IMG/VR virus record: IMGVR_UViG_3300037419_002279
Location: 1 to 64,000 of that record
Source of the DNA: a virus
Lineage: Duplodnaviria; Caudoviricetes
DNA: 64,000 bases
Direction: 5' to 3' (one strand)
In this document: positions 47,672 through 61,978 of the stretch, in pieces
Layout: every line of letters starts with the position of its first letter
Numbering within the stretch: the stretch's first letter is position 1
Program-made: the position numbers and the translations under genes
Notes under the pieces: generated by a model
The model's input: only the letters and a program-made list of their open reading frames with translations
Database searches by the model: none
What the model was told of the DNA's origin: nothing

Positions 47672-48130
47672 ATGTCGGACGCCCCACGCGGACGCGGCCG
47701 CCCGCCGCATATCCCGACACCCGAACAGCGCCGGCTGGTGCAGGTGCTGCGCAGCAACGGCACCGCGCTGCGGGTCATCGCGCGCAACCTGTCCCTCGAT
47801 GTGACGACGCTGCGCAAAGCCTACAAAGACGAATTGCGCGAAGGCCATGAATCCGTCGTCGCCGCCGTCGGCGCGGCGATCGTGCAGCAAGCGCTGAACG
47901 GCAATGTGCACGCGGCCAAGTACTGGCTGTCCACCCACGGCGGTCCGGAATGGAAAATCGTCGAGGGCCGTCAGATCGGCGGCATGCCCGGCGCTGATCC
48001 GATCCCGATCCAGCAATCAGGCGAATCGCGCGTCGTTATCGTGCTGCCGGATAACGGCCGCGACCGGGCGGCGATCGGCGATGCGCTCGGCTTAGGCGAC
48101 ACCGCCGAGGGCCGGACATTGAATGACTAG
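47672..48130 (+). CDS. terS: Terminase small subunit
   Basis: GRPPHIPT.EQR..TLRKAYKDEL..AAKYWL; precedes terL. Confidence 0.8.
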   Translation: MSDAPRGRGRPPHIPTPEQRRLVQVLRSNGTALRVIARNLSLDVTTLRKAYKDELREGHESVVAAVGAAIVQQALNGNVHAAKYWLSTHGGPEWKIVEGRQIGGMPGADPIPIQQSGESRVVIVLPDNGRDRAAIGDALGLGDTAEGRTLND

Positions 48131-49529
48131 GGAAATCCGGCCGAACCCCGGACCGCAATCGGATTTTCTGGCAAATGCCGCGGACCTGACGATTTTCGGC
48201 GGCGCGGCCGGCGGTGGAAAAACCTGGGCGCTGCTCCTCGAACCGCTGCGCCACGTCACCACAAACCCTGCTTTCGCCGCGGTCTGCTTCCGCCGCACGA
48301 CGGTGCAGATCAGAAATCCCGGCGGGCTGTGGGATCAGTCAATGCGGCTATATCCGCTGATCGGCGGCATCCCGGCCGGACAGCCGCTCGAATGGCGCTG
48401 GAAAAACGGCGGGAAAATCAAATTCGCGCACCTCGAACACGAAAATAACAAACTCGACTGGCACGGCAGCGAAATCCCGCTGCTGCTGTTCGACGAACTG
48501 ACGCATTTTACCGCCACGCAGTTTTGGTATTTGTTGAGCCGCAATCGCTCGATGTCCGGCGTCGCCGGCTATGTCCGCGCATCCTGTAATGCCGACGCCG
48601 ATAGCTGGGTCGCACAACTGATCGAATGGTGGATCGACCAGACGACGGGCCTGCCGATCCGCGAACGCTGCGGCGCGTTGCGCTGGTTTGTCCGCATATC
48701 CGACGAAATGATCTGGGCGGATGATCCGGACACGCTGCGCCGCGATTATCCGGGCTCGCTGCCGAAGTCGCTGACGTTTATTGCCGCGACCCTCGATGAC
48801 AACCCCGCGCTAAATGCGGTCGATCCCGGCTACCGCGCGAACCTGATGGCGCTGCAACGCGTCGAGCGCGAACGGCTGCTCGGCGGCAATTGGCTGATCC
48901 GCGCGTCCGCCGGTAATTTCTTCCAGGCCGGCTGGTGCGAATTCATCGATGCGGCCCCCGCCGGGATGACCGAAGTGCGCGGATGGGATTTAGCAGGCAC
49001 GCGCGACGACGGCACGAATGACCCCGACTGGACGACCGGCACACGCATGGGCCGCACCCCTGACGGCCGCTACGTCGTGCTCGATCATGTCTGGATGCGC
49101 GGCACCCCGGGGCAGGTCGAACGGCTGATCTACAACACAGCGACTCAGGACGGGAAGAAGGTCGCGATCAGTCTGCCGAAGGATCCCGGACAGGCCGGCG
49201 TCGCACAGGTCCTGGCGTTGACTAAGATGCTCGCCGGCTGGATCGTCAAATCGTCACCCGAGTCAGGCGATAAGGAAACGCGCTTTTCCCCGTTCAGCGC
49301 CCAGGCCGAGGCCGGCAATGTGCTGGTGCTGCGCGGGCCGTGGATCCAGCGCTGGATCAGGCAACTCGAAGGCTTTCCGGAGGCGCCGCATGATGACGAT
49401 GCTGACAGCACCGCGCGCGCCTTCAACTTCCTTGCCGAGCGGCCGGCCGTGCGCCGCTTTTCCGATGCCGCCCTGCTGCGCGCGGCCCAGCGCCGCGACG
49501 GCGGCCCGGTTGTGAGCCGGCCGTTTTGA
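48123..49529 (+). CDS. terL: Terminase large subunit
   Basis: FGGAAGGGKT Walker A; LLFDELTHF Walker B; RGWDLA..HDDDADS nuclease. Confidence 0.95.
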   Translation: MTREIRPNPGPQSDFLANAADLTIFGGAAGGGKTWALLLEPLRHVTTNPAFAAVCFRRTTVQIRNPGGLWDQSMRLYPLIGGIPAGQPLEWRWKNGGKIKFAHLEHENNKLDWHGSEIPLLLFDELTHFTATQFWYLLSRNRSMSGVAGYVRASCNADADSWVAQLIEWWIDQTTGLPIRERCGALRWFVRISDEMIWADDPDTLRRDYPGSLPKSLTFIAATLDDNPALNAVDPGYRANLMALQRVERERLLGGNWLIRASAGNFFQAGWCEFIDAAPAGMTEVRGWDLAGTRDDGTNDPDWTTGTRMGRTPDGRYVVLDHVWMRGTPGQVERLIYNTATQDGKKVAISLPKDPGQAGVAQVLALTKMLAGWIVKSSPESGDKETRFSPFSAQAEAGNVLVLRGPWIQRWIRQLEGFPEAPHDDDADSTARAFNFLAERPAVRRFSDAALLRAAQRRDGGPVVSRPF

Positions 49530-51502
49530 TTTCCTGGGCAACGATCACCGCCGCGGCCAGCCTGCTGCTGGGGCGTACCGCGCCGCCCGCACCGGCCCCG
49601 GCCCCGGTGCCCGAGCCGCGCCGCATTCGCCACACAGCACCCGGCCCGTCGCGCCCGACCGTGACGCCCTGGCAGATCGCAGCACCCCCGCCCGGCGTCG
49701 TGCCCGAAGGGGCGGCGACGATGGCGCAGGACGATGCCCTGACCGGGCTGTATGCCTACGCGTCCGCGTCGAACGTCTGGGGCGAAGGGCTGCAATGGTT
49801 CGGCTATCCGTTCCTCGCCGAACTCGCGCAGCGTGCCGAATACCGGCAGATCAGCGAGACGCTTGCGAAGGAAATGACCCGCAAATGGATCACGATCCAG
49901 GCCACCGGGTCCGACGACGGCAAGGCCGATAAGGTCCGCGCGCTCGAGCTCGCCTTCAAGCGGCTGAAGGTCCAGCAGGCATTCCGCCGTGCCGCCGAAT
50001 TGGACGGATTATTCGGCCGGGCACAAATCTATATCGACACCGGCTGCACGGATGATCCGGACGAACTGCGCACGCGGCTGACGCCGACGCCGGAAAAGAT
50101 CAGCCGCGGCGGGCTGAAGGGCCTGCGCGTCGTCGAGCCGCTGTGGACCTATCCGACCGACTACAACAGCATCGACCCGCTGCGCCCGAATTACTTCGTC
50201 CCGCGCGCCTGGTTCGTGCAGGGCCGGCACATCGATGCGACACGGCTGCTGACCTTTGTCAGCCGCGAAATGCCCGACATGCTGAAGCCGGCCTATAGCT
50301 TCGGCGGCCTGTCGATGTCGCAACTCGCCTACCCGTATGTCGAAAATTGGCTCCGGACTCGGCAGTCCGTCAGCGACATGCTGCACACCTTCAGCGTCAC
50401 CGGGCTGAAGACGAATATGCAGGTGATGACCGACGACGAGGTGTTTCAGAAGGCGCAGTTCTTCAACAATTTCCGCGACAACCGCGGCCTGATGATGATC
50501 GACAAAGAGGCCGACGACTTCTTCAACATCAGTGCACCGTTGGGTGGGCTCGATCACCTGCAAGCGCAGGCGCAAGAGCAGATGGCTTCGGTCGCGCGCA
50601 TCCCGCTTGTCGTGCTGCTGGGCATCACGCCGTCGGGGCTGAACGCATCATCGGACGGCGAAATCCGCACCTTCTATGCGTGGATCGAGGCGCAGCAGGA
50701 AGCGCTGTTCGCCGACCATCTAAACACCGTCCTTAAATACGTGCAGCTATCCGAATTCGGCGAGGTCGATCCCGAGATCGGTTTCCGCTTCAACCCGTGC
50801 TGGACGCTGGACGAAGAAAAGCAGGCGACGGTGCGCAAGACGCAGGCCGACACCGCGGCCGTCTACATTCAAGCCGGGGTGTTGTCGCCGCACGAAGAGC
50901 GCGAACGGATCGCGCAGGACGAGGACAGCCCGTATGCCGCGCTGGATCTCGCCGATCGCGAAGACCCGACGCCGCCGGCTGATCCGGCCGCTGAGGGCGA
51001 TCCACTGTCCGAACCTGACAACGACAATCAGCCGCCGCCGGGACGTCCGGACCTGCCCCACCCCGCCGGGGTAGGCCGTCCGGATGTGGGCCGGCCTGGT
51101 GGCCCCGGGCGGCCGGCTGCCAGCCGCCCGGTCGGCCCCGGACGCCCGGACGTGGCCCGCGGTGCGCAGGACATCAGCCTGTGGGATCTCGACTGGCTGC
51201 TCGACAAATACGCCCATGTCTTTGGACAGCGCCCGTCCTGGGACATCCCGCCGCACGCCTATCCGCAGGCGGCGCTGGCGCTGACGCAGGCGATCGCCAC
51301 CGGCGAGCCGGTCGATGACGACGCCGAATTCGACGACGCCGAGGCCGGGGGATTTGGTGAGGACGCCGGCTTCGAGGAAGCCGACCACCCCCGTGACCAG
51401 GGCGGCAAGTTCACCTCAGGCGCCGGATCGGGCGGCGGTTCGACAAAAGGTCCGACCGAAAAGGCTAAAGGTCGAACTAGCATTCAGCGACGGCCGGCGT
51501 AG
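49526..51502 (+). CDS. Portal protein (DUF1073) with long C-terminal extension
   Basis: GYPFLAELAQRAEY..EMTRKWI..IPLVVLLGITPSGLNASSDGEI; extension ends in HPRDQGGKFTSG. Confidence 0.9.
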   Translation: MISWATITAAASLLLGRTAPPAPAPAPVPEPRRIRHTAPGPSRPTVTPWQIAAPPPGVVPEGAATMAQDDALTGLYAYASASNVWGEGLQWFGYPFLAELAQRAEYRQISETLAKEMTRKWITIQATGSDDGKADKVRALELAFKRLKVQQAFRRAAELDGLFGRAQIYIDTGCTDDPDELRTRLTPTPEKISRGGLKGLRVVEPLWTYPTDYNSIDPLRPNYFVPRAWFVQGRHIDATRLLTFVSREMPDMLKPAYSFGGLSMSQLAYPYVENWLRTRQSVSDMLHTFSVTGLKTNMQVMTDDEVFQKAQFFNNFRDNRGLMMIDKEADDFFNISAPLGGLDHLQAQAQEQMASVARIPLVVLLGITPSGLNASSDGEIRTFYAWIEAQQEALFADHLNTVLKYVQLSEFGEVDPEIGFRFNPCWTLDEEKQATVRKTQADTAAVYIQAGVLSPHEERERIAQDEDSPYAALDLADREDPTPPADPAAEGDPLSEPDNDNQPPPGRPDLPHPAGVGRPDVGRPGGPGRPAASRPVGPGRPDVARGAQDISLWDLDWLLDKYAHVFGQRPSWDIPPHAYPQAALALTQAIATGEPVDDDAEFDDAEAGGFGEDAGFEEADHPRDQGGKFTSGAGSGGGSTKGPTEKAKGRTSIQRRPA

Positions 51503-51546
51503 CCACCTTTAACAAGGGCACCGCACCGCCGGCCGAACTGAACGGT

Positions 51547-52845
51547 GTGCCCTTCAAGTCCTGGAAGCCCCCGCACAACGCGGCGGCGTGGAAGCTGCTC
51601 GCCCATGTCGGGCCGGCGTTCGACGAACCGCCGCTGCCGCCGGTGCCGAAGGGCATGAAGCAGGGCGCGGGCGTCATCGTCCGCGAGCCCGACGGCCGCA
51701 TCTGGCTGATGCATCCGAAAAAGGGTTACGGCGGCTACAAGGCGACCTTCCCCAAGGGCACAGTCGAGTCCGACATCGGGCCGCGCGCAACCGCGATCAA
51801 AGAGGCCTACGAAGAAACCGGCCTGCATGTCCGCCTGACCGGCTACGCGGGCGATGTGAAGCGCACGACGTCGGTCGGCCGCTACTACTACGCCGAACGG
51901 GTCGGCGGCACGCCGGCCGATGCCGGCTGGGAAGCGTCCGGCGTCAGCCTGGCCGAACCGGACGCGCTGCATAAGCTGCTGAACGCCCCGCACGATAAGG
52001 CGCTGGCGTCCGCGGTGACCGGCGGGGCGCCCCTGCCGCCGGTAGAGTCCGCACCCGACAAAGCGCCGACAAAAACCGACGACGCGCCGACGAAAGCCGG
52101 CGGCGTTCCTGAAAAGGCCCCGGCAAATCCGACAAAGGCACAGGATGTTCCCGACATAAGCGCCTGGAAGAAGGTCGGCGCGCAACTCGGCTCGAACCCC
52201 GGCGGCACCTACACCGACCCGTCGGGCGCGAAGTGGTACGCGAAGCAGCAGAAGTCCGAACATCACGCGCGCAACGAGGCGCTCGCCTCGGCGCTGTATC
52301 AGGCCGCCGGTTCGCCCGTCGTCAACAGCAAGCTGGTCAAGTTCGGCGACACCTGGGGCACGGCGACGCCCTGGCTCGACGGCGAGAAGCACGACATCGG
52401 ATCGAAGCCTTCGCAGGCGGATCGCGACGCCGCGGCGGAAGACTTCGCGACGCATGCCTGGCTGTCGAACCGCGACGCGGTCGGCCTCGATTATACGAAC
52501 CAGGCGAAAATCGACGGCAAGATGCGCACGATGGACGTCGGCGGCGCGCTGGAATTCCGTGCGCAAGGCGGGAAGAAGCCCAGCTTCGGCGATACCGCGG
52601 ACGAATGGGACAGCCTGCGCAACGCCGGGATCAACCCGCAGACGCATGCCGTCTACGGCGCGATGACGCCGGCACAACTGAAGGCCTCGGCCGCGAAGGT
52701 CGCAGCGGTCCCGGATCAGACAATCCGGACCCTGGTCGATCAGCATGGGCACGGCGACGCGGCGGCAAAGAAGGCGCTCGCCGAGAAGCTGATCGCGCGC
52801 AAGGCCGACATCGCGGCCCGGGCCGCCGCCCTGTCCGACAAATAG
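51547..52845 (+). CDS. NUDIX hydrolase + HipA/PI3-4-kinase-like protein (frame open from 51481, probably continuing the portal extension)
   Basis: FPKGTVE..AIKEAYEETGL Nudix box; LGSNPGG..WYAK..NEALAS.LY..NRD..N..MDVGG. Confidence 0.8.
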   Translation: MPFKSWKPPHNAAAWKLLAHVGPAFDEPPLPPVPKGMKQGAGVIVREPDGRIWLMHPKKGYGGYKATFPKGTVESDIGPRATAIKEAYEETGLHVRLTGYAGDVKRTTSVGRYYYAERVGGTPADAGWEASGVSLAEPDALHKLLNAPHDKALASAVTGGAPLPPVESAPDKAPTKTDDAPTKAGGVPEKAPANPTKAQDVPDISAWKKVGAQLGSNPGGTYTDPSGAKWYAKQQKSEHHARNEALASALYQAAGSPVVNSKLVKFGDTWGTATPWLDGEKHDIGSKPSQADRDAAAEDFATHAWLSNRDAVGLDYTNQAKIDGKMRTMDVGGALEFRAQGGKKPSFGDTADEWDSLRNAGINPQTHAVYGAMTPAQLKASAAKVAAVPDQTIRTLVDQHGHGDAAAKKALAEKLIARKADIAARAAALSDK

Positions 52846-52867
52846 TCGAACCGCGGAAGGGGAAGGT

Positions 52868-55702
52868 ATGACCGATGCCCTGTTCCCGCGGGCCGGCACC
52901 TGCCGCCGTGCGATCCCCCGCCTGATCCTGCCCCGCCCCGGGCTGATGGCGCGCGACGACTGGCAGGCGCACCTGCACCCGCGCGACGAGACGGGCAAGT
53001 TCACGTCCGGCCCCGGATCGCATGCAGAGTCGACGCCGAAGCATCCGGCCTGGATGGGCAAGACCGGCCAGGCGTTCTACGACGAAGTCGTCAACGGCCT
53101 CGGCTCGAAGCATCACGACGAAATTGCCCAGGCGCTGAAGGACAAGGCCGCGACGCTGAAGGCCGGCGACTATTCGTCCTATGCGAACAAGCTGCTGGCG
53201 CACGTCGAACAGGCGCACGGGCTGGAAAAGGGCAAGCTCGGCAAGGCAAAGCCGATGGGCAAGGCGGCCCCGCCGGCCGCGAAGGAACCGCCGGCACCGG
53301 CGCCCGAACCCGCGAAGGCACCCGACGTCGACGCCGAGTTCAAGTCGATGGTCGACGAAGCCCTGGCGACCGGAAGTCCGCAGCAGCACGCCGAATTCCT
53401 CGAAGGTCTGATCCCGCACACCGAAGGCGCGAAGAAGGCATACCTTGAGGGTCAGCTTGCTGATCTGAAGGGCAAGATCGCCGCCGGCACGGCGAAGGGC
53501 GAAGCGACCGAAGCGCCGCTATCGGCGGAAAAGGCCGCGCGCAAAGCCGAGATCGAAGCCGCCGAGGAACCGGCTGCACCGCCGCCGGAAATCGCAGCGC
53601 TGCCCGATCCGGCGACGAAGGTGCAGAAGAATATTCACGACCTGATGCAGTCCGACCTGCCGGTCGAGAGCATCAAGCAGAAGATCGCGAACATCGCCGA
53701 GGCGTCGCAGCACCCGCCGAACAAGGCGTATGCCGAACAGGCCCTGGCGCTGCTGGAACAACAGGCCGGCACAGCCGCGCCGTCGATGCAGGACGAAGCC
53801 TACGCCGAAGCGTCGAAGGCGCTCACGGAAAAGGGCAACATCGGCTTCTGGCTTGACCTGGCGAACAGCAACGGCGTCGATCCGGACGCCGCGGTCGGGA
53901 TCAAGCAGGCGATCGCCGAATGGCAGGACGCCAATCCGCCCGACGACGATGAGCCCGCGTTCTTCGCGCCGGCGGAACCTGAAGCGCCCGAACCGGCGGC
54001 GCCGATGACGACCGAACAGGTCGACTCCCTCTATCCGGACGTGTCGGTCGACCTGAAAAGCGCATGGAATGAAGAGATCGCGAAGAACAAGAAAGGCGCG
54101 ATCAAGGACCTTGAGAACGTCATCAAGCATTTTTCCGACAAAACGCCCGAGGCGGAAGTCTCGTGGATGAAGGACAAGGTCGCGGCGCTGAAGGGCGAAG
54201 GCACCGCGCCGGCCCCGCCGGCCGACACCGATCTTCCGAAGCCGGCGAACCCCGCGCAAGAAATCATGGCGTCGGCCCTGACAAAGACCGGCGTCTTTGC
54301 GGACGCATCGCCCGAGACCACCGAGGCGGCGTTCCAGCAGTGGCTCGCCAGCCCGCACATGGCGCCGGAAGACAAGGAATACGCGAAGAAGGTCATCGCG
54401 AAGATGGGCGCCGAGACCGGCGCCGCCCCGGCCGCCCCGGCGCCGATGACGTCAGAACAGGTCGACGCCGCGCATCCGGATGTCACGGAAACCCTGAAGA
54501 AGAACTGGAATCAGTCGATCGCGCAGGATCCGGCAGGGTCGGCGGCAACCTTGCAGAAATACCTAGAGGTCGGCGCCGGTCTGAGCCCGACGCTCAAAGC
54601 CTGGATGAAGGACAAGGTGGCAGCCCTGAACGCCGCCGGTCACGGCACTGCTGCCCCGGCCGAACCCCCGGCGCCACCGCCCGAGCCGCCGGTCAGCCTG
54701 CCCGCGCCGCACCCGTCGTCGAAGGGCCAGACCCTGGTGCACGGCATTGCATCCGGCGAAGGCAGCAAGGCCGACAAGATCGCCAAGATCAAGCAGGCGG
54801 TCGCCGACGACCCGCACCACTTCCCGGCCGGCGGCTACGCGAAGAAGTACGCCGATCAGCTTATCGCGGCCCTGGGCGGCGACCAGACGGCGCAGCAGGC
54901 GGCGCCCAAGCCGGCCGCAGCCGCGGCACCGGCCGCGCCCGCAGCAAAGCCCGCAGCGGCCGACCCGGCGCTGCACACGGCCCCGGCCGGTTCGGCGACG
55001 CACGAGGACGATCACGCCGCGCCGATCCCGGCGTATTTCGTCAACCAGGGCATGAAGGCGAAAAGCCGGGTCAGCGCGCACGACACGCTGAAGCGCATCC
55101 AGAACATCAAGGCGGTTGCCGCGAACGCAAAGACGGTCACGTCGATCACCACGGCGGCGGCGAAGAAGCTCTGCCCGACGGCGACATCGGCCTGGTGGAA
55201 GACAAACGCCGATGCCTCGGTGATCAGCGCAATCCAAAGCTACTCGGGTAGCGGCTACGGCACCATGAACGCGGTGCTGCGCGGCGACAGCAACGACCCG
55301 GCTGCGCTGGCGAAGATCAACCATATCGACGATATGTTCGAGCACGACGAGGCCGCCGTGACCGACGACGTGATCGTGCACCGCGGGGAAAATCTGACGG
55401 ACGACACCGTCATTGCCAAATGGGAAGCGGCGCTGAAGGCCGGCAAGCCGGTGCGCGAGATCAAGCACGGCTTCACGTCCGCATCCCTTGCCGATCACGC
55501 GGCCTTTTCCCACCACAACGTCCAGTATCAGATCACCGTCCGCAAAGGGTCGCGGATGCTGGGCATCGGCGTCAAAGGCGTCTCGGGTTACGGCTCGGAC
55601 GAAAACGAAGTGCTGCTGCGCCACGGCCAGACGTTCGAAATCTACGACATCACACGAGCGAGCAACGGCCGCGTGTTCGTCAAGATGGCCGTCACAACTT
55701 AG
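52868..55702 (+). CDS. Head-associated protein with C-terminal ADP-ribosyltransferase (VIP2-like, R-S-E)
   Basis: HPRDETGKFTSG N-terminus; SYSGSGYGTMN.VLR, HRG (55379), FTSAS (55472), ENE (55601). Confidence 0.85.
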   Translation: MTDALFPRAGTCRRAIPRLILPRPGLMARDDWQAHLHPRDETGKFTSGPGSHAESTPKHPAWMGKTGQAFYDEVVNGLGSKHHDEIAQALKDKAATLKAGDYSSYANKLLAHVEQAHGLEKGKLGKAKPMGKAAPPAAKEPPAPAPEPAKAPDVDAEFKSMVDEALATGSPQQHAEFLEGLIPHTEGAKKAYLEGQLADLKGKIAAGTAKGEATEAPLSAEKAARKAEIEAAEEPAAPPPEIAALPDPATKVQKNIHDLMQSDLPVESIKQKIANIAEASQHPPNKAYAEQALALLEQQAGTAAPSMQDEAYAEASKALTEKGNIGFWLDLANSNGVDPDAAVGIKQAIAEWQDANPPDDDEPAFFAPAEPEAPEPAAPMTTEQVDSLYPDVSVDLKSAWNEEIAKNKKGAIKDLENVIKHFSDKTPEAEVSWMKDKVAALKGEGTAPAPPADTDLPKPANPAQEIMASALTKTGVFADASPETTEAAFQQWLASPHMAPEDKEYAKKVIAKMGAETGAAPAAPAPMTSEQVDAAHPDVTETLKKNWNQSIAQDPAGSAATLQKYLEVGAGLSPTLKAWMKDKVAALNAAGHGTAAPAEPPAPPPEPPVSLPAPHPSSKGQTLVHGIASGEGSKADKIAKIKQAVADDPHHFPAGGYAKKYADQLIAALGGDQTAQQAAPKPAAAAAPAAPAAKPAAADPALHTAPAGSATHEDDHAAPIPAYFVNQGMKAKSRVSAHDTLKRIQNIKAVAANAKTVTSITTAAAKKLCPTATSAWWKTNADASVISAIQSYSGSGYGTMNAVLRGDSNDPAALAKINHIDDMFEHDEAAVTDDVIVHRGENLTDDTVIAKWEAALKAGKPVREIKHGFTSASLADHAAFSHHNVQYQITVRKGSRMLGIGVKGVSGYGSDENEVLLRHGQTFEIYDITRASNGRVFVKMAVTT

Positions 55703-55754
55703 GCTAGCTCCGATACCCGCGATTGCTATACAATCGCAACGGAAGGATTAGGAC

Positions 55755-55943
55755 ATGGCAAGGCAGCCCGACCCGGCTGACGATCGACAGGACAGCCCCG
55801 GCGTCTTCATCGTCGGCGACGAAGTCATCTACGACGGTGAAGCCGACAAGCTCGGCCTGCCGAGCAAGGTAGGGCAGAAAATCCCCCTGCCGGAAGGTTG
55901 GGATGACAGCCGGACCGACGACACCGGCGATGGCCGGGCCTGA
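55755..55943 (+). CDS. Small acidic protein (candidate immunity)
   Basis: GGA RBS; 62 aa, Asp-rich; directly after the ART gene. Confidence 0.55.
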   Translation: MARQPDPADDRQDSPGVFIVGDEVIYDGEADKLGLPSKVGQKIPLPEGWDDSRTDDTGDGRA

Positions 55944-56037
55944 CTTCAGCCTCTGGCCGCTGGCCGTCATCCTGATCATCGCCGCAGCAGGTGGCGGCCT
56001 CGTTTTCCTGATCGCCCTGCGCGCCGGTGCAATGTGA
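55930..56037 (+). CDS. 35-aa single-TM protein
   Basis: MAGPDFSLWPLAVILIIAAAGGGLVFLIALRAGAM; not in ORF track. Confidence 0.5.
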   Translation: MAGPDFSLWPLAVILIIAAAGGGLVFLIALRAGAM

Positions 56038-56042
56038 AGCCG

Positions 56043-56510
56043 ATGACATTCCGCGGGCTGTTCGCACGGTTCGCGCAGGCGACCGCCGTCGCATCGGGGC
56101 ATCCGGTCACCTTCGGCCTTGCCGTCATCGTCGTCGTCGTCTGGGGCGCGACCGGGCCGATGTTCGGCTACAGCGATGGCTGGCAACTGGTGATCAACAC
56201 CGGCACGACCGTGGTCACCTTCCTGATGGTGTTCCTGCTACAAGCCACACAGACCCGCGACACGGCCGCGATCCAACTGAAGCTCGACGAACTGATCCGC
56301 GCGATCGACGGGGCGCGCAACAACCTGATCGCGATCGAAAAGCGCACCGACGATCTGGCCGAACCGATCCTGCCGCCCAGCGCGTTGCCGCGTACGAATA
56401 TGAAAATCCCGCCGCCACGTCCGTCGCCACCGCATCAAGGCACCAGCGCCGCGCCGCCGCTGCACGTCTACAATCAGTCCACCAGCATCCAGCCGCCGCG
56501 GCAGCCCTAG
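56043..56510 (+). CDS. Low-affinity iron permease (Fet4-like) family protein
   Basis: WGATGPMFGYSDGWQLVINTGTTVVTFLMVFLLQATQTRDTAAIQLKLDELIRA. Confidence 0.9.
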   Translation: MTFRGLFARFAQATAVASGHPVTFGLAVIVVVVWGATGPMFGYSDGWQLVINTGTTVVTFLMVFLLQATQTRDTAAIQLKLDELIRAIDGARNNLIAIEKRTDDLAEPILPPSALPRTNMKIPPPRPSPPHQGTSAAPPLHVYNQSTSIQPPRQP

Positions 56511-56755
56511 CGCTCCCAGGACGCCCGGCCGGTCGTCAGATATTCCAGGTCGATGCCGGTGCACGCGCTGATCGCGGCCAGGACCTGCGGCGGGGCCAGC
56601 ACACAGCCGGCTTCGTAGGCATCGTAGACTGCCGGATCGACGTCGAGCATCGCGGCATATTCGGCCGCCGTCAGGTCGGTCTGCCCGGTGACCATGATGA
56701 AGGCCAGCCGCACCGCGCTTAGCCGATCAGCGAGTTCGTCCTGTTGGGCGTTCAA
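56507..56755 (-). CDS. XRE-like HTH protein
   Basis: RLSAVR..LTAAEYAAMLDV..YDAYEAG..P..L..I..G.DLEYL.TG; TTG start inferred. Confidence 0.65.
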   Translation of the reverse strand: MNAQQDELADRLSAVRLAFIMVTGQTDLTAAEYAAMLDVDPAVYDAYEAGCVLAPPQVLAAISACTGIDLEYLTTGRASWER

Positions 56756-56837
56756 TCCCGATCCCCTTCTGTGATGCACAGCTAGGCACACGTCCGACAA
56801 ATTGTCGAACCTAACGGCGCTGTTGTAGGACCCCGAC

Positions 56838-57635
56838 ATGCTTGAGTCGCCGACCGGCAAGCCGGTAACCCTCGGCGCGGCGCATCCGAACGCCGGCCTC
56901 GAAGTGCAGTACCGCCGCAAGCTGGTCCGCCTGGTCGATGAGATGAACCGGTCGATCCTCTACTGGATCCGCGTCTACTACCGCCGCGACCCGCCCGAAA
57001 TCGCCCAGGACAGCCCGGCGGGCACGCTGATCAAGGCCATCCGCGGCCTCGGCCGGCGCTGGACCCGGCGCTTCAACGACACAGCCGACGAGCTTGCCGC
57101 CTATTTCGGCACCGCGATCCGCAACCGGTCCGAGGCGGCGTTGCAGGACATCCTGCGCCGGGGCGGCTTTTCCGTCCGCTTCCGCCCGTCGGCCGCCGTC
57201 CGCGACGTCCTCGATGCGATCGTCGCCGAGAATGTCAGCCTGATCCGGTCGATCCCGGCGCAGCATTTCACCCAGATCGAGGGGATGGTGATGCGCTCGG
57301 TCCAGGCCGGGCGGGACCTGAAGCAACTGACCGACGATCTACAGGATACCTTCGGCGTCACCCGCCGCCGGGCGATCGCGATCGCGCGAGATCAGAACAA
57401 CAAGGCGACGGCGATGATCACCCGCGCCCGACAGATGGAAATCGGCGTCACCAAGGCGATCTGGCTGCACAGCCACGGCGGCAATCCGCGGCCCGAGCAT
57501 CTGTCCTGGTCGGGGCAGGAATACGACGTCGCGAAGGGCATGTGGTCGAAGGTCGATCAGGCCTGGGTCTGGCCGGGGACCGCCATCAACTGCCGCTGCG
57601 TCAGCAAGTCGATCGTGCCGGGTTATTCAGCCTAG
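56838..57635 (+). CDS. Head morphogenesis protein (MuF/SPP1 gp7)
   Basis: RRRAIAIARDQNNKAT..W.HS..RPEH..PGTAINCRC. Confidence 0.9.
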   Translation: MLESPTGKPVTLGAAHPNAGLEVQYRRKLVRLVDEMNRSILYWIRVYYRRDPPEIAQDSPAGTLIKAIRGLGRRWTRRFNDTADELAAYFGTAIRNRSEAALQDILRRGGFSVRFRPSAAVRDVLDAIVAENVSLIRSIPAQHFTQIEGMVMRSVQAGRDLKQLTDDLQDTFGVTRRRAIAIARDQNNKATAMITRARQMEIGVTKAIWLHSHGGNPRPEHLSWSGQEYDVAKGMWSKVDQAWVWPGTAINCRCVSKSIVPGYSA

Positions 57636-58603: not shown

Positions 58604-60388
58604 ATGCCCATCCGATCGTGCACCTTGCCCGACGGCGGCAAGGGCTACAAATGGGGCGATTCCGGAAAATGCTACCGGAATCGTAAAGACGCCGAACGCC
58701 AGGCCTCTGCCGCCTATGCGAACGGCTACGCCGGCGACGAAGCGCTGATCCCGCCCGGCATGCGGGCGGTGATGCCGCAGGACCTGATCGTCATGGATCG
58801 GCGCCCGTCCGCGCGCCTGATCACCGCCGACGGTCACCTGCGCGTCGCCGGATCGGCTGTCAGCAAGTCGAACGTATGCCCCTACCTCGGCGCCGAAATA
58901 CCCGGCTGGCAGCAGTTGGGGCTCGATGCCGGGCGCATCTACCGCCTGTATCGCGACCCGAAGGCGCTAGCCGCCGCGGCCGACAGCCTGAACGGCAAGC
59001 CGCTCTTGGTCGTGCACCGCCCGCTGACCGCGCAGGATCACGATCACCGTGTCGTCGTCGGCGCCCTCGATAATGCGCACTGGCAGGCCCCCTATCTGCG
59101 CGCCGACCTGACCGTCTGGACGCAGGATGCGATCGATCTGATCGAAAGCGGCGAGCAGCGACAACTGTCGTGCGCCTATCGCTACACGCCGGTCATGCGT
59201 CACGGCGTGACCGCCGACGGCGAGCCCTACGACGGCTACATGGCCGACATCCACTTCAACCATTGCGCGCTTGTTTCGACCGGCCGGGCCGGGGCGGACG
59301 TGATGGTCGGAGACTCCCTCACAAAAGGACTGCTGAGAATGGCAACAGGACAGGCGTCCGCCCGGCTATCGCGCAAAGCGGTAATGGTTGCCGGTGCGGT
59401 GCAGGCTTACATCCACCCGAAGCTAGCGACCGATCAGAAGCCGGATCTGCGTCGCGCGCTGCTCGGCACGACAGCGGCGAATTACACCGCGCGCAAGCCG
59501 GTGCTGGCGGCGCGGCTGCACCGCGCGCTGTCCGGCAAGCTGGCGAAGGACGCCAGCCTGGCCGAGATCGTCGCCCTGCTCGATCGTCTCGAAGGTGACG
59601 ATACCGCCGTCGGGACGCAGCCCGATCCTGATCCCGACGACGACGGTGACGTCGACGTCGATCTTGATGCCGATGACGACGACGGCGCGCGCACCGATCC
59701 GCCGCCCGATGATGACGCATCCGACGTCACCCCGGCCGGATCGGACATCCCGCCCGAGGTCGCCGAAGCGGCGGCCGAAAATATCGACCCTGACATCGAA
59801 AATCCCGACGCGGGCGACATGCCCCCGCCGGAAGAAGTGCCGGACAGCGACGACGTTACTGCGCCGCCGCCTGATGCCGGACCGGCTGGGGAAGTCACCG
59901 ACAAAGTCCTGACTTTCCTGAATGACCTGATCCGCCCGGAGGACCTGGCAATCGTGACACATCTTCTGAAGCCGAACGGCTCCGGGTCTGACCCCGAGCC
60001 GAAGTCCAAGCTGACCGTCGACAAGCCTGCGTTCGTGACGAAACAGGCGATGGACGCCGCGATTAAGGCGGCGACGAAAGCCACTGAGCAGGCAACGATC
60101 GCCCGGCTGCGGGCGGTATCGGATGCAAGGGCTTTCATTCGCCCCTGGGTGGGCGAACTGAACATCGCCCAGGACAGCGCCGAGGGCGTGCTGCGCGCCG
60201 CCCTCGAACACCTCGGTGTCGACGTCAAAGACGTCCATCCGTCGGCCTACAAGGCAATCCTGTCGGCGCAGCCCCGCCCCGGCGAACGGCAGCGCGGCGC
60301 CCCGCGCGCGCTCGCGCATGCCGCCGACGCAAAGCCGCTGTCGTTCGAGGAACGATTCCCGCACGCGAACCGGCTACGGGCCGGCTGA
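58604..60388 (+). CDS. DUF2213 prohead protease/scaffold with small N-terminal extra domain
   Basis: DGHLRV..SKSNVCPYLG.EIP..YRDP..NGKPLL..H..LSCAYRY..NHCALV..GRAG.DV..GDS; acidic scaffold tail. Confidence 0.9.
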   Translation: MPIRSCTLPDGGKGYKWGDSGKCYRNRKDAERQASAAYANGYAGDEALIPPGMRAVMPQDLIVMDRRPSARLITADGHLRVAGSAVSKSNVCPYLGAEIPGWQQLGLDAGRIYRLYRDPKALAAAADSLNGKPLLVVHRPLTAQDHDHRVVVGALDNAHWQAPYLRADLTVWTQDAIDLIESGEQRQLSCAYRYTPVMRHGVTADGEPYDGYMADIHFNHCALVSTGRAGADVMVGDSLTKGLLRMATGQASARLSRKAVMVAGAVQAYIHPKLATDQKPDLRRALLGTTAANYTARKPVLAARLHRALSGKLAKDASLAEIVALLDRLEGDDTAVGTQPDPDPDDDGDVDVDLDADDDDGARTDPPPDDDASDVTPAGSDIPPEVAEAAAENIDPDIENPDAGDMPPPEEVPDSDDVTAPPPDAGPAGEVTDKVLTFLNDLIRPEDLAIVTHLLKPNGSGSDPEPKSKLTVDKPAFVTKQAMDAAIKAATKATEQATIARLRAVSDARAFIRPWVGELNIAQDSAEGVLRAALEHLGVDVKDVHPSAYKAILSAQPRPGERQRGAPRALAHAADAKPLSFEERFPHANRLRAG

Positions 60389-60401: not shown

Positions 60402-60902
60402 ATGACCTTTCAAACCGCAATCAACGTCCAGCAGGCCCCTGCCGTCGCCGGCGACTTCGCATCCGCGAACCCGCGCAACAGCATGATCAGCCGCCCCGGC
60501 GGCTTCGTCGCCGGCACCAACGGCGTCACTGTCGGTCTGTTCGTCTGGCAGGACACCAGCACCGGCACGATCCTGGCAAACACCGGCACCGGTGCGCCGA
60601 ACGGCTTCATGCATCGCGAAATGAACGCGACGAACTACACCTATCTGTCGAACGGCACGATGCTGATCCCGGCCAATCAGGGCATCGGCGGCATGTTCGA
60701 TGCCGGTGACTTCTGGTGCAAGAACGCCGGCGCCGGATCGGTGACCGTCGGGCAGAAGGCGTTCGCCAACAACACCAACGGCACGATCAGTTTCGCCAAC
60801 ACCGGCGCGACGGTTTCCGGTTCGACCGAAACGAAATGGTACGCGCGGTCCGCCGGCGCCACGGGCGAACTGATCATCATCTCTACCACCTCGCCGACCT
60901 GA
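60402..60902 (+). CDS. Capsid decoration/cementing protein
   Basis: FQTAINVQQAPAVAGDFASANPR..FVAG..GVTVG.F.W; between protease and capsid genes. Confidence 0.75.
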   Translation: MTFQTAINVQQAPAVAGDFASANPRNSMISRPGGFVAGTNGVTVGLFVWQDTSTGTILANTGTGAPNGFMHREMNATNYTYLSNGTMLIPANQGIGGMFDAGDFWCKNAGAGSVTVGQKAFANNTNGTISFANTGATVSGSTETKWYARSAGATGELIIISTTSPT

Positions 60903-60919
60903 AGCCGGGAGCATCAGCA

Positions 60920-61978
60920 ATGTATCGTAGTAGCGTTTTCGAGGCTGATGCCGCGCGGCTGGAAGCCGAGTGGGGCATCGTCATGCCGTTCGCGCAGGAC
61001 TGGCTACCGCGCGAATTCCGCAACAACTGGCAGATGGCCGTCGACGCGCAGCCGACGCTTGTCACGACGCCGAATGCCGGCGTGCCGGCGTTCTTCACCC
61101 AGCTTGTCGATCCTGACGTCGTGCGCGTCCTTCAGACGCCCAACAAGGGCGCCGAGATCCTCGGCGAACAGAAAAAGGGCACCTGGACGGACATGACGCT
61201 GTTCATCCCGGTCGTCGAAAACACCGGCGAGGTGTCGTCCTACGGCGACTGGAACAACAACGGCCGCTCGGACGTCAACGAGTCCTGGGAACAGCGGCAG
61301 GCATATAACTTCCAGACGATCATCGAATACGGCGATCTGGAAGTCGATCGCGCCGCGGCCGCGAAGCTTCAGCTTGTCAGCGAGAAGCAGACTTCGGCGG
61401 CGAAGACCCTCGATAAATTCCTGGACTACTGCTACCATTTCGGGGTCGCAAGCCTTCAGAATTATGGCATCCTGAATGACCCGTCGCTGCCGGCGGCGAT
61501 CACGCCGACGACGAAGGCGGCCGGCGGCGTCCGCTGGGTGACGACAGGCGGCGTCGTCAATGCACAGGCGGCGGAAATCTATTCCGACTTCCTGCTGCTG
61601 TTTAACCAGCTTGCCAGCGCGTCCGGCGGCTACATCACCGCCGAGTCCCGGATGAAGCTCGTCACCCCGAACAACGTCGCCTCGGCGCTGGCCGTGGTGA
61701 ACAGCTTCGGCATCACGATCAAGGCGTTCATCAAGGAAAGCTTCCCGAACGTCGAGTATGTGACCGATCCGCGCTATGCGACCGGGTCCGGCAACGTTGT
61801 GCAGTTGATCGCGATGGAATTCGACGGCAACGACACCGGCTACTGCGCCTTCAACGAAAAGAGCCGCGATCACCAGGTCGTCAGGCAATTGTCGGCGTAT
61901 GCGCAGAAGCGCAGCGCGGGCACCTGGGGCGCGATCATCCGCTATCCGCTGGCCTTCGCCCAACTGATCGGGGTTTGA
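60920..61978 (+). CDS. Major capsid protein (DUF2184)
   Basis: AVDAQPTLVTTPNAGVP.FFT..VDP..; SSYGDWNNNG; LQNYGILNDPSL; SAGTWGAIIRYP. Confidence 0.9.
   Translation: MYRSSVFEADAARLEAEWGIVMPFAQDWLPREFRNNWQMAVDAQPTLVTTPNAGVPAFFTQLVDPDVVRVLQTPNKGAEILGEQKKGTWTDMTLFIPVVENTGEVSSYGDWNNNGRSDVNESWEQRQAYNFQTIIEYGDLEVDRAAAAKLQLVSEKQTSAAKTLDKFLDYCYHFGVASLQNYGILNDPSLPAAITPTTKAAGGVRWVTTGGVVNAQAAEIYSDFLLLFNQLASASGGYITAESRMKLVTPNNVASALAVVNSFGITIKAFIKESFPNVEYVTDPRYATGSGNVVQLIAMEFDGNDTGYCAFNEKSRDHQVVRQLSAYAQKRSAGTWGAIIRYPLAFAQLIGV

Follow-up and report, generated by a model that had tools for sequence, protein, structure and literature searches.

The window analysed here, the first 64 kb of a linear 73,182-bp IMG/VR virus record (IMGVR_UViG_3300037419_002279; completeness approximately 91% according to CheckV), carries on its plus strand a portal open reading frame (ORF) of 658 aa (49526-51502), followed by an ORF, open from stop to stop at 51481-52845, that encodes a NUDIX hydrolase domain and a protein-kinase-like domain in the -1 frame relative to the portal. 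In the sequence as it stands, these are two ORFs lying one base out of frame. Our analysis indicated that the C-terminal extension of the portal and the NUDIX-kinase ORF are very probably the two halves of a single portal-fused, putatively head-packaged effector gene that was split by a plain indel. A fusion ancestry was assigned because homology crosses the break and intact portal-NUDIX(-kinase) ORFs exist in relatives. On both grounds we retained the central proposal of an initial annotation of this DNA, namely that a portal-HPRD-NUDIX-kinase fusion had been inactivated, recoded or split by a sequencing error; of these three options, recoding was disfavoured, as discussed below. The ancestral gene would have encoded, in this order, the portal, a junction motif, a Gly-rich linker, the NUDIX domain and a HipA/CtkA-like kinase, with a total of about 1,100 aa, and a net one-base indel within 51481-51499, in a variable linker some 30 codons past the motif, would have thrown the halves out of frame. 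In what follows, P0002 denotes the NUDIX-kinase ORF of the window, other P-numbers denote homologous proteins, and L-numbers denote related loci.

The portal ORF and the position of the frame break

The portal ORF begins with a TTG codon that overlaps the stop codon of TerL, and the N-terminal leader of its product aligned with the fused homologs. The product matched Pfam PF06381 (Phage_portal_3) over profile positions 4-356 of 357 (E 1.1e-85, 288 bits against a cut-off of 33.8) as well as phrog_146 (E 4.7e-108). The PF06381 domain occupies aa 97-445 and is followed by a C-terminal extension of roughly 155-210 aa. Between 50840 and 51500 the portal frame is the sole open frame, and additional frameshifts inside the extension were rejected for this reason. 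The high G+C content at third codon positions (GC3) of the +1 frame at 50900-51150 was attributed to the Pro/Gly/Arg-rich composition of this region. No homolog of the stretch at 50978-51352, which consists of a Pro/Gly/Arg-rich linker and ISLWDLDWLLDKYAHVFGQRPSWDIPPHAYPQAALALTQAIATGEPV, was found among the 80 related IMG/VR loci that formed our comparison set.

Further downstream, the portal frame encodes the junction motif, or tag, FEEADHPRDQGGKF (51371-51412, plus strand), followed by the Gly-rich linker TSGAGSGGGS; the HPRD that the initial annotation had placed in the portal extension was located at 51386-51397. The portal ORF terminates 29 codons past this motif, at a TAG confirmed at 51500-51502. 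The -1 frame contains a TAG at 51478-51480 and is open from 51481, reading HSATAGVATFNKGTAPPAELNGVPFKSW / HSATAGVATFNKG... Because these two stop codons bound it, the one-base break must fall within the 19-nt overlap CATTCAGCGACGGCCGGCG (51481-51499), in which both frames are open. At about 51400-51500, the GC3 signal of the portal frame gives way to that of the NUDIX frame. The coordinates confirmed that the NUDIX-kinase frame is -1 relative to the portal, and the restored joined product was computed at about 1,106 aa, in agreement with the earlier estimate that one extra base would give a single portal-NUDIX-kinase protein of about 1100 aa.

Homology across the break and intact fusions in relatives

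In a tblastn search of the NUDIX ORF against phage genomes, the matches began at query residues 1-4, upstream of GTG 51547, which is the first ATG, GTG or TTG codon of the NUDIX frame. The L012 ORF matched the window by tblastn in two segments made up of consecutive query residues, one at 51359-51415 in the portal frame and the other at 51502-52755 in the NUDIX frame, and its motif showed 74% identity to that of the window. Two phage proteins, gp131 of Yersinia phage fHe-Yen8-01 (a 44% identical NUDIX protein, labelled 'particle associated protein' in its GenBank record) and its homolog in Enterobacter phage phiT5282EW, contain the sequence HHPRLGExG approximately 30 aa before EVATFxPNGxxPxExNG, and the latter segment of both aligned to P0002 from residue 4. 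In all of the closer metagenomic relatives, which showed 46-55% identity, a single frame runs from the motif [FW]xE[AS][DE]HPR..G[KQ]F through a Gly-rich linker and TFxK..P..LNGVxFxxW to the NUDIX domain and then to a kinase-like domain. For example, the junction of L009 reads dfkeaehprneggkftagaggggaapeapkaakksq followed by TFGKKG, and that of the window reads feeadhprdqggkftsgagsgggstkgptekakgrts before the break and atagvaTFNKG after it.

The conserved N-region of the NUDIX module (VATFNKG..PAELNGVPFKSW..EPPLP; 51499-51654) lies mostly upstream of any start codon in the window. This region is present in 51 loci of the comparison set, and it aligned with 43 loci and with Yersinia phage gp131 from residue 91 of the latter. 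In all of the 51 loci, 46 or more open codons lead up to the N-region and a start codon is present well upstream; the corresponding number of open codons in the window is 0. The arrangement of the window, with no open codons before the N-region or the first start inside it, was observed in none of the 51 loci, and neither was the frame offset at this junction, the modules being either in frame or separate genes with their own start. Judged from these sequence comparisons, the pattern of 0 versus at least 46 open codons is not due to chance.

Intact fusions were also identified. The portal lies within the same stop-to-stop ORF as the NUDIX domain in 11 of the 51 loci, and at least 18 proteins (18 of the 120 longer homologs listed) join a PF06381 portal to a PF00293 NUDIX domain, several of them also with an ADP-ribosyltransferase. 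P0117 (1122 aa) and P0111 (1294 aa) match the predicted size and combine the portal with NUDIX/kinase. In P0099/L015 the ADP-ribosyltransferase module is fused behind the portal-NUDIX-kinase; with its portal, NUDIX and kinase, a second tag, repeats and the ADP-ribosyltransferase, the 1800-aa P0099 corresponds in one ORF to all three of the window genes. Relatives with an intact fusion, for which the initial annotation had recommended a search, were thus identified, and the situation that it had named as a refutation, in which relatives always have two genes, was not what we found. Other carriers of the NUDIX-kinase module are DUF2213 proteases, topoisomerase IB proteins and short stand-alone leaders; the PF09979 protease and NUDIX are combined in P0008, P0009, P0011, P0013 and P0095-P0103.

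Conservation of the NUDIX and kinase-like domains

The NUDIX domain (51661-52002, plus strand) matched PF00293 with an E value of 2.6e-12 (47.4 bits against a cut-off of 21.1). Its top Foldseek matches were the Ap6A hydrolase Ndx1 (E 8.5e-9) and the Ap4A hydrolase aq_158, both with E of about 9e-9, and the fold is also near those of DR1025 and MutT1. The core of the NUDIX box (REUxEExGU) reads KEAYEETGL, in which the EE pair is retained, R is changed to K and the first Glu of the box is replaced, and these features are family-wide. At the columns conserved in at least 90% of sequences, 0 of 41 deviated in the window. The domain may act as a nucleotide-signal hydrolase, the nearest solved folds being Nudix enzymes of the Ap4A/Ap6A type.

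The C-terminal domain (52147-52830, plus strand), which the initial annotation had described as HipA/PI-kinase-like, was borne out in this respect by its fold. The AlphaFold2 model had a predicted local distance difference test (pLDDT) score of 92.9, and the first Foldseek match was CtkA of H. pylori (3akl; E 9.4e-7, TMq 0.58), followed by HipA, PI4K and LepB. Searches of Pfam (including HipA_C), NCBIfam and PDB sequences gave no match, so that the likeness to HipA and CtkA is by fold only. All of the family invariants were found in the window, namely GSNPGG, Y-x-K (K255), N-E, NWD...N (D332, N340) and DxGG (D352-x-GG); by analogy, K255, D332, N340 and D352 may represent the ATP-binding Lys and the catalytic and metal-binding residues. 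Among the 29 columns conserved in at least 90% of sequences, one deviated: D339T (52495-52497) places a Thr where 97% of 76 relatives encode an Asp, the D of a DNQ triplet beside the invariant N340.

A kinase-like domain of this family was also observed behind a CDKN3/dual-specificity-phosphatase-like domain in chromosomal proteins of about 400 aa (P0060, P0071-P0079; L091-L167). The hosts of these proteins are Alpha-, Beta- and Gammaproteobacteria (Rhodovulum, Rhodobacter, Methylocapsa, Methylomonas and others), and this pairing lies outside any obvious phage head context.

Origin of the frame break

An indel in an otherwise sound gene could have arisen in two ways. We consider an assembly or sequencing error to have about an even chance of being the cause, and a natural mutation that arose very recently in the population sampled to be a substantial but lesser possibility. 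An error or a very recent event was favoured because the NUDIX and kinase-like domains show no decay, no slippery site is present and no relative shares the shift. Decay of a pseudogene was rejected in view of the conserved columns described above. Compared with homolog ORFs, the only frame changes on the plus strand of the head module were this break and a clean gene boundary at about 52850-52870; no other frame break was found in the TerL, portal, MuF, protease or major capsid protein (MCP) genes, and a generally indel-ridden contig was accordingly rejected for the head module.

Several observations weigh against a split by an indel. Searches with P0002 peptide patterns in viral, metagenome and genome collections, and with the exact 26-mer at 51450-51475 in viral and metagenome contigs, revealed no near-identical copy showing an unbroken sequence at the break. 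The ADP-ribosyltransferase gene of the window is itself cleanly split off. In addition, modules are frequently split or fused at these junctions across the family, and the ORF of L040 ends naturally 12 aa past a terminal motif, so that a portal ending just after the tag has a precedent. The last two points, together with the position of GTG 51547, 45 nt downstream of the portal stop, and the presence of GAAGGG before a second candidate start, ATG 51655, would suit an arrangement of two separate genes, in which the portal ends after its terminal tag and the NUDIX-kinase is produced from GTG 51547 or ATG 51655 by termination-reinitiation, untagged and perhaps unpackaged. We regard this arrangement as improbable. 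All of the standalone relatives begin ahead of their own tag motif, and their frames are open for 46 codons or more before the N-region is reached. The 25 nt upstream of GTG 51547 contain no purine-rich Shine-Dalgarno (SD) sequence, as the initial annotation had noticed, and the GAAGGG lies 1 nt from ATG 51655 and encodes the conserved residues PKG(M/K)K; an SD sequence was thus found at neither codon. Genuine starts in the same phage can have a clear ribosome-binding site, such as GGAAGGGG-N5-ATG at 52868, where the SD-like GGAAGGGGAAGG precedes the ATG of the ADP-ribosyltransferase gene (52855-52870, plus strand), and GGGAGG before 57663. Moreover, either start would cut into residues 7-58, a stretch that is conserved and for which a fold is predicted with confidence. 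An AlphaFold2 model of P0002 residues 1-200, built from 35 sequences, had a mean pLDDT of 91.3, with strands at 7-10 and 19-26, a helix at 34-41 and pLDDT values of 90-98 from residue 11. According to this model, the N-region belongs to the confidently predicted fold of the domain, so that a start at GTG 51547 (residue 23) or ATG 51655 (residue 59) would yield a product truncated inside that fold.

Programmed recoding would involve an inefficient and non-canonical -1 shift within the 19 nt shared by the two frames, whereby a minority of portals carry cargo and most stop at TAG 51500. Both frames are open throughout this overlap, the downstream NUDIX-kinase ORF is perfectly preserved, and a mixture of short and long portal forms would be biologically sensible in a 12-mer ring. 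Furthermore, a 9-bp GC inverted repeat (CGGCCGGCG at 51491-51499 and CGCCGGCCG at 51527-51535) can fold in the RNA into a stem that encloses the portal stop (51491-51535, plus strand). However, no slip site precedes this stem, and the RNA folding of the break region was no better than that of shuffled sequences (z = -0.73). The overlap contains no X XXY YYZ heptamer, which confirmed a statement of the initial annotation, and no homopolymer or A/T run that might allow transcriptional slippage; the nearest A-AAG site, at about 51455, runs into two -1-frame stops. As the frame offset was shared by none of the 51 related loci either, we consider programmed recoding to be highly unlikely. An equally slight chance is given to the broader idea of a deliberate break, in which a -1 event or termination-reinitiation, helped by the stem at 51491-51535, sets the ratio of bare to cargo-bearing portals; if true, this would be a new way of dosing portal-tethered effectors. 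The inverted repeat could instead be an error-prone or indel-prone spot. The frame break itself is probably trivial. In practice, gene callers will annotate loci of this kind wrongly, as a long portal and a start-less 'NUDIX' gene.

The junction motif and the fate of the cargo

The junction motif is a more useful by-product of this analysis than the frame break. The motif found in the portal extension also precedes the NUDIX module in relatives, and multi-cargo proteins carry it ahead of each module. We identified 56 distinct strict instances in the window and the 80 loci, all on the cargo strand; in 52 of these, 150 residues or more come after the motif, corresponding to a cargo domain. For the 44 instances with a defined 5' end of the ORF, 7 lie within 40 aa of that end and 30 are found deeper than 100 aa within the ORF. 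Only in the window (29 aa) and in L040 (12 aa) does the ORF stop soon after the motif. Because the motif precedes almost every cargo module, whether portal-fused, fused to the DUF2213 protease or stand-alone, [FW]xExxHPR..GxF is a candidate loading and/or cleavage tag, or else a module joint. No description of it was found in the literature searched, and the search for literature on the function of DUF2213 gave nothing useful.

A second copy of the tag, WQAHLHPRDETGKF (52961-53002; HPRDxxGKFTSG), lies inside the ADP-ribosyltransferase gene, which has its own strong SD sequence. The two copies in the window share 48 of 76 nt, including a 14-nt identical run, GGCAAGTTCACC, and recombination between them would delete the NUDIX-kinase. 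A loose motif scan found no more copies in the MuF, protease or MCP genes; the look-alikes FEAD at the N terminus of the MCP and FEERFPH at the C terminus of the protease were too weak and were not used.

Two variants were observed elsewhere. In L040 (9252-9329; IMGVR_UViG_3300045283_000290), a portal-kinase-NUDIX ORF carries a terminal WEESKHPRDPEGKF with no recognisable cargo downstream; either this is a natural case of a tag that has no cargo, or a module has been lost. In phages of about 90 kb (L001:5731-6549, which is gp131; P0017, P0021-P0023), a second leader type precedes the NUDIX modules, with an N-terminal M..LKA..KGY.RxDGxxVxxH and a variant HP[RLKQ]xGExG motif.

The homology over the break, the intact fusions in relatives and the folds of the domains are results of the analysis, whereas packaging, cleavage, injection and substrates of the portal-NUDIX-kinase are all matters that we infer. 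The support for packaging in the virion is indirect and consists of the 'particle associated protein' label of Yersinia phage gp131. In the intact form, the cargo would be attached to the C terminus of the portal, facing the capsid interior, and would be loaded during head assembly. Proteolysis at the junction motif or close to it would presumably free the cargo, which might then exit with the DNA and act early in the next host.

Genomic setting

The NUDIX-kinase locus sits inside the terminase-portal-head morphogenesis module, as do head-protein-fused effectors. The gene order of this module, all on the plus strand, is the small terminase TerS (47672-48130), the large terminase TerL (48123-49529), the portal, the NUDIX-kinase, a 944-aa protein with a C-terminal ADP-ribosyltransferase (52868-55702; PF03496, E 2.2e-15), MuF (56838-57635), the DUF2213 head-maturation protease (58604-60388; PF09979, E 7e-40; phrog_2229, E 1e-106) and the MCP (60716-61978). 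The approximately 1.1 kb between the ADP-ribosyltransferase and MuF genes (55703-56837) contains only Arg-rich, non-coding-looking ORFs, for example at 56027-56722, and no family matches were found for them.

Comparison with known systems

Programmed -1 frameshift sites are known from phage structural genes, as in the tail chaperones G/GT, and from the dnaX type. As in those genes, the overlap of two frames in a late structural gene would here yield a short and a long product; however, the window lacks a slippery heptamer and a significant stimulator, and its shift is not conserved in relatives. With the atypical kinases HipA, CtkA and PI4K, the kinase-like domain shares the fold, and the window family invariably retains the counterparts of their Gly-rich loop, Lys, catalytic Asp/Asn and DxG. 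It differs from these structures in showing only about 10-14% identity to them and in lacking a sequence-family match.

T4 Alt and the internal proteins of T4 are enzymes that enter the head by means of a short N-terminal address and are delivered together with the DNA; Alt is an ADP-ribosyltransferase of the R-S-E type. By analogy, the window system has a tag before each cargo module and an R-S-E ADP-ribosyltransferase, and delivery is likewise predicted. In contrast, the capsid-targeting sequence (CTS) of T4 has no sequence relation to the window tag, and cargo of the window type can be linked covalently to a portal or protease. The packaging of Alt is summarised in PMC9503650.

The closest likeness is to the effectors described by Iyer and colleagues. 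The study of polyvalent proteins by Iyer, Burroughs, Anand, de Souza and Aravind (Iyer et al. 2017, PMC5512222) and that of Iyer et al. (2022, PMC9503650) have already described fusions of the portal, MuF or the capsid-processing peptidase with Nudix and ADP-ribosyltransferase domains, and such head-protein-fused effectors, encoded beside terminase and portal, are predicted to be packaged and injected. The gene neighbourhood and the domain set of the window are the same, and the relatives of the window are intact fusions of that type. The window fusion differs in being interrupted by a one-base frame break, and neither the [FW]xExxHPR..GxF motif nor the kinase-like partner is named in the searched passages of PMC5512222 and PMC9503650. 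The locus is a frame-broken member of this known kind of head-fused effector and, when read through, represents a compact portal-NUDIX-kinase example of the effectors that ride inside the capsid.

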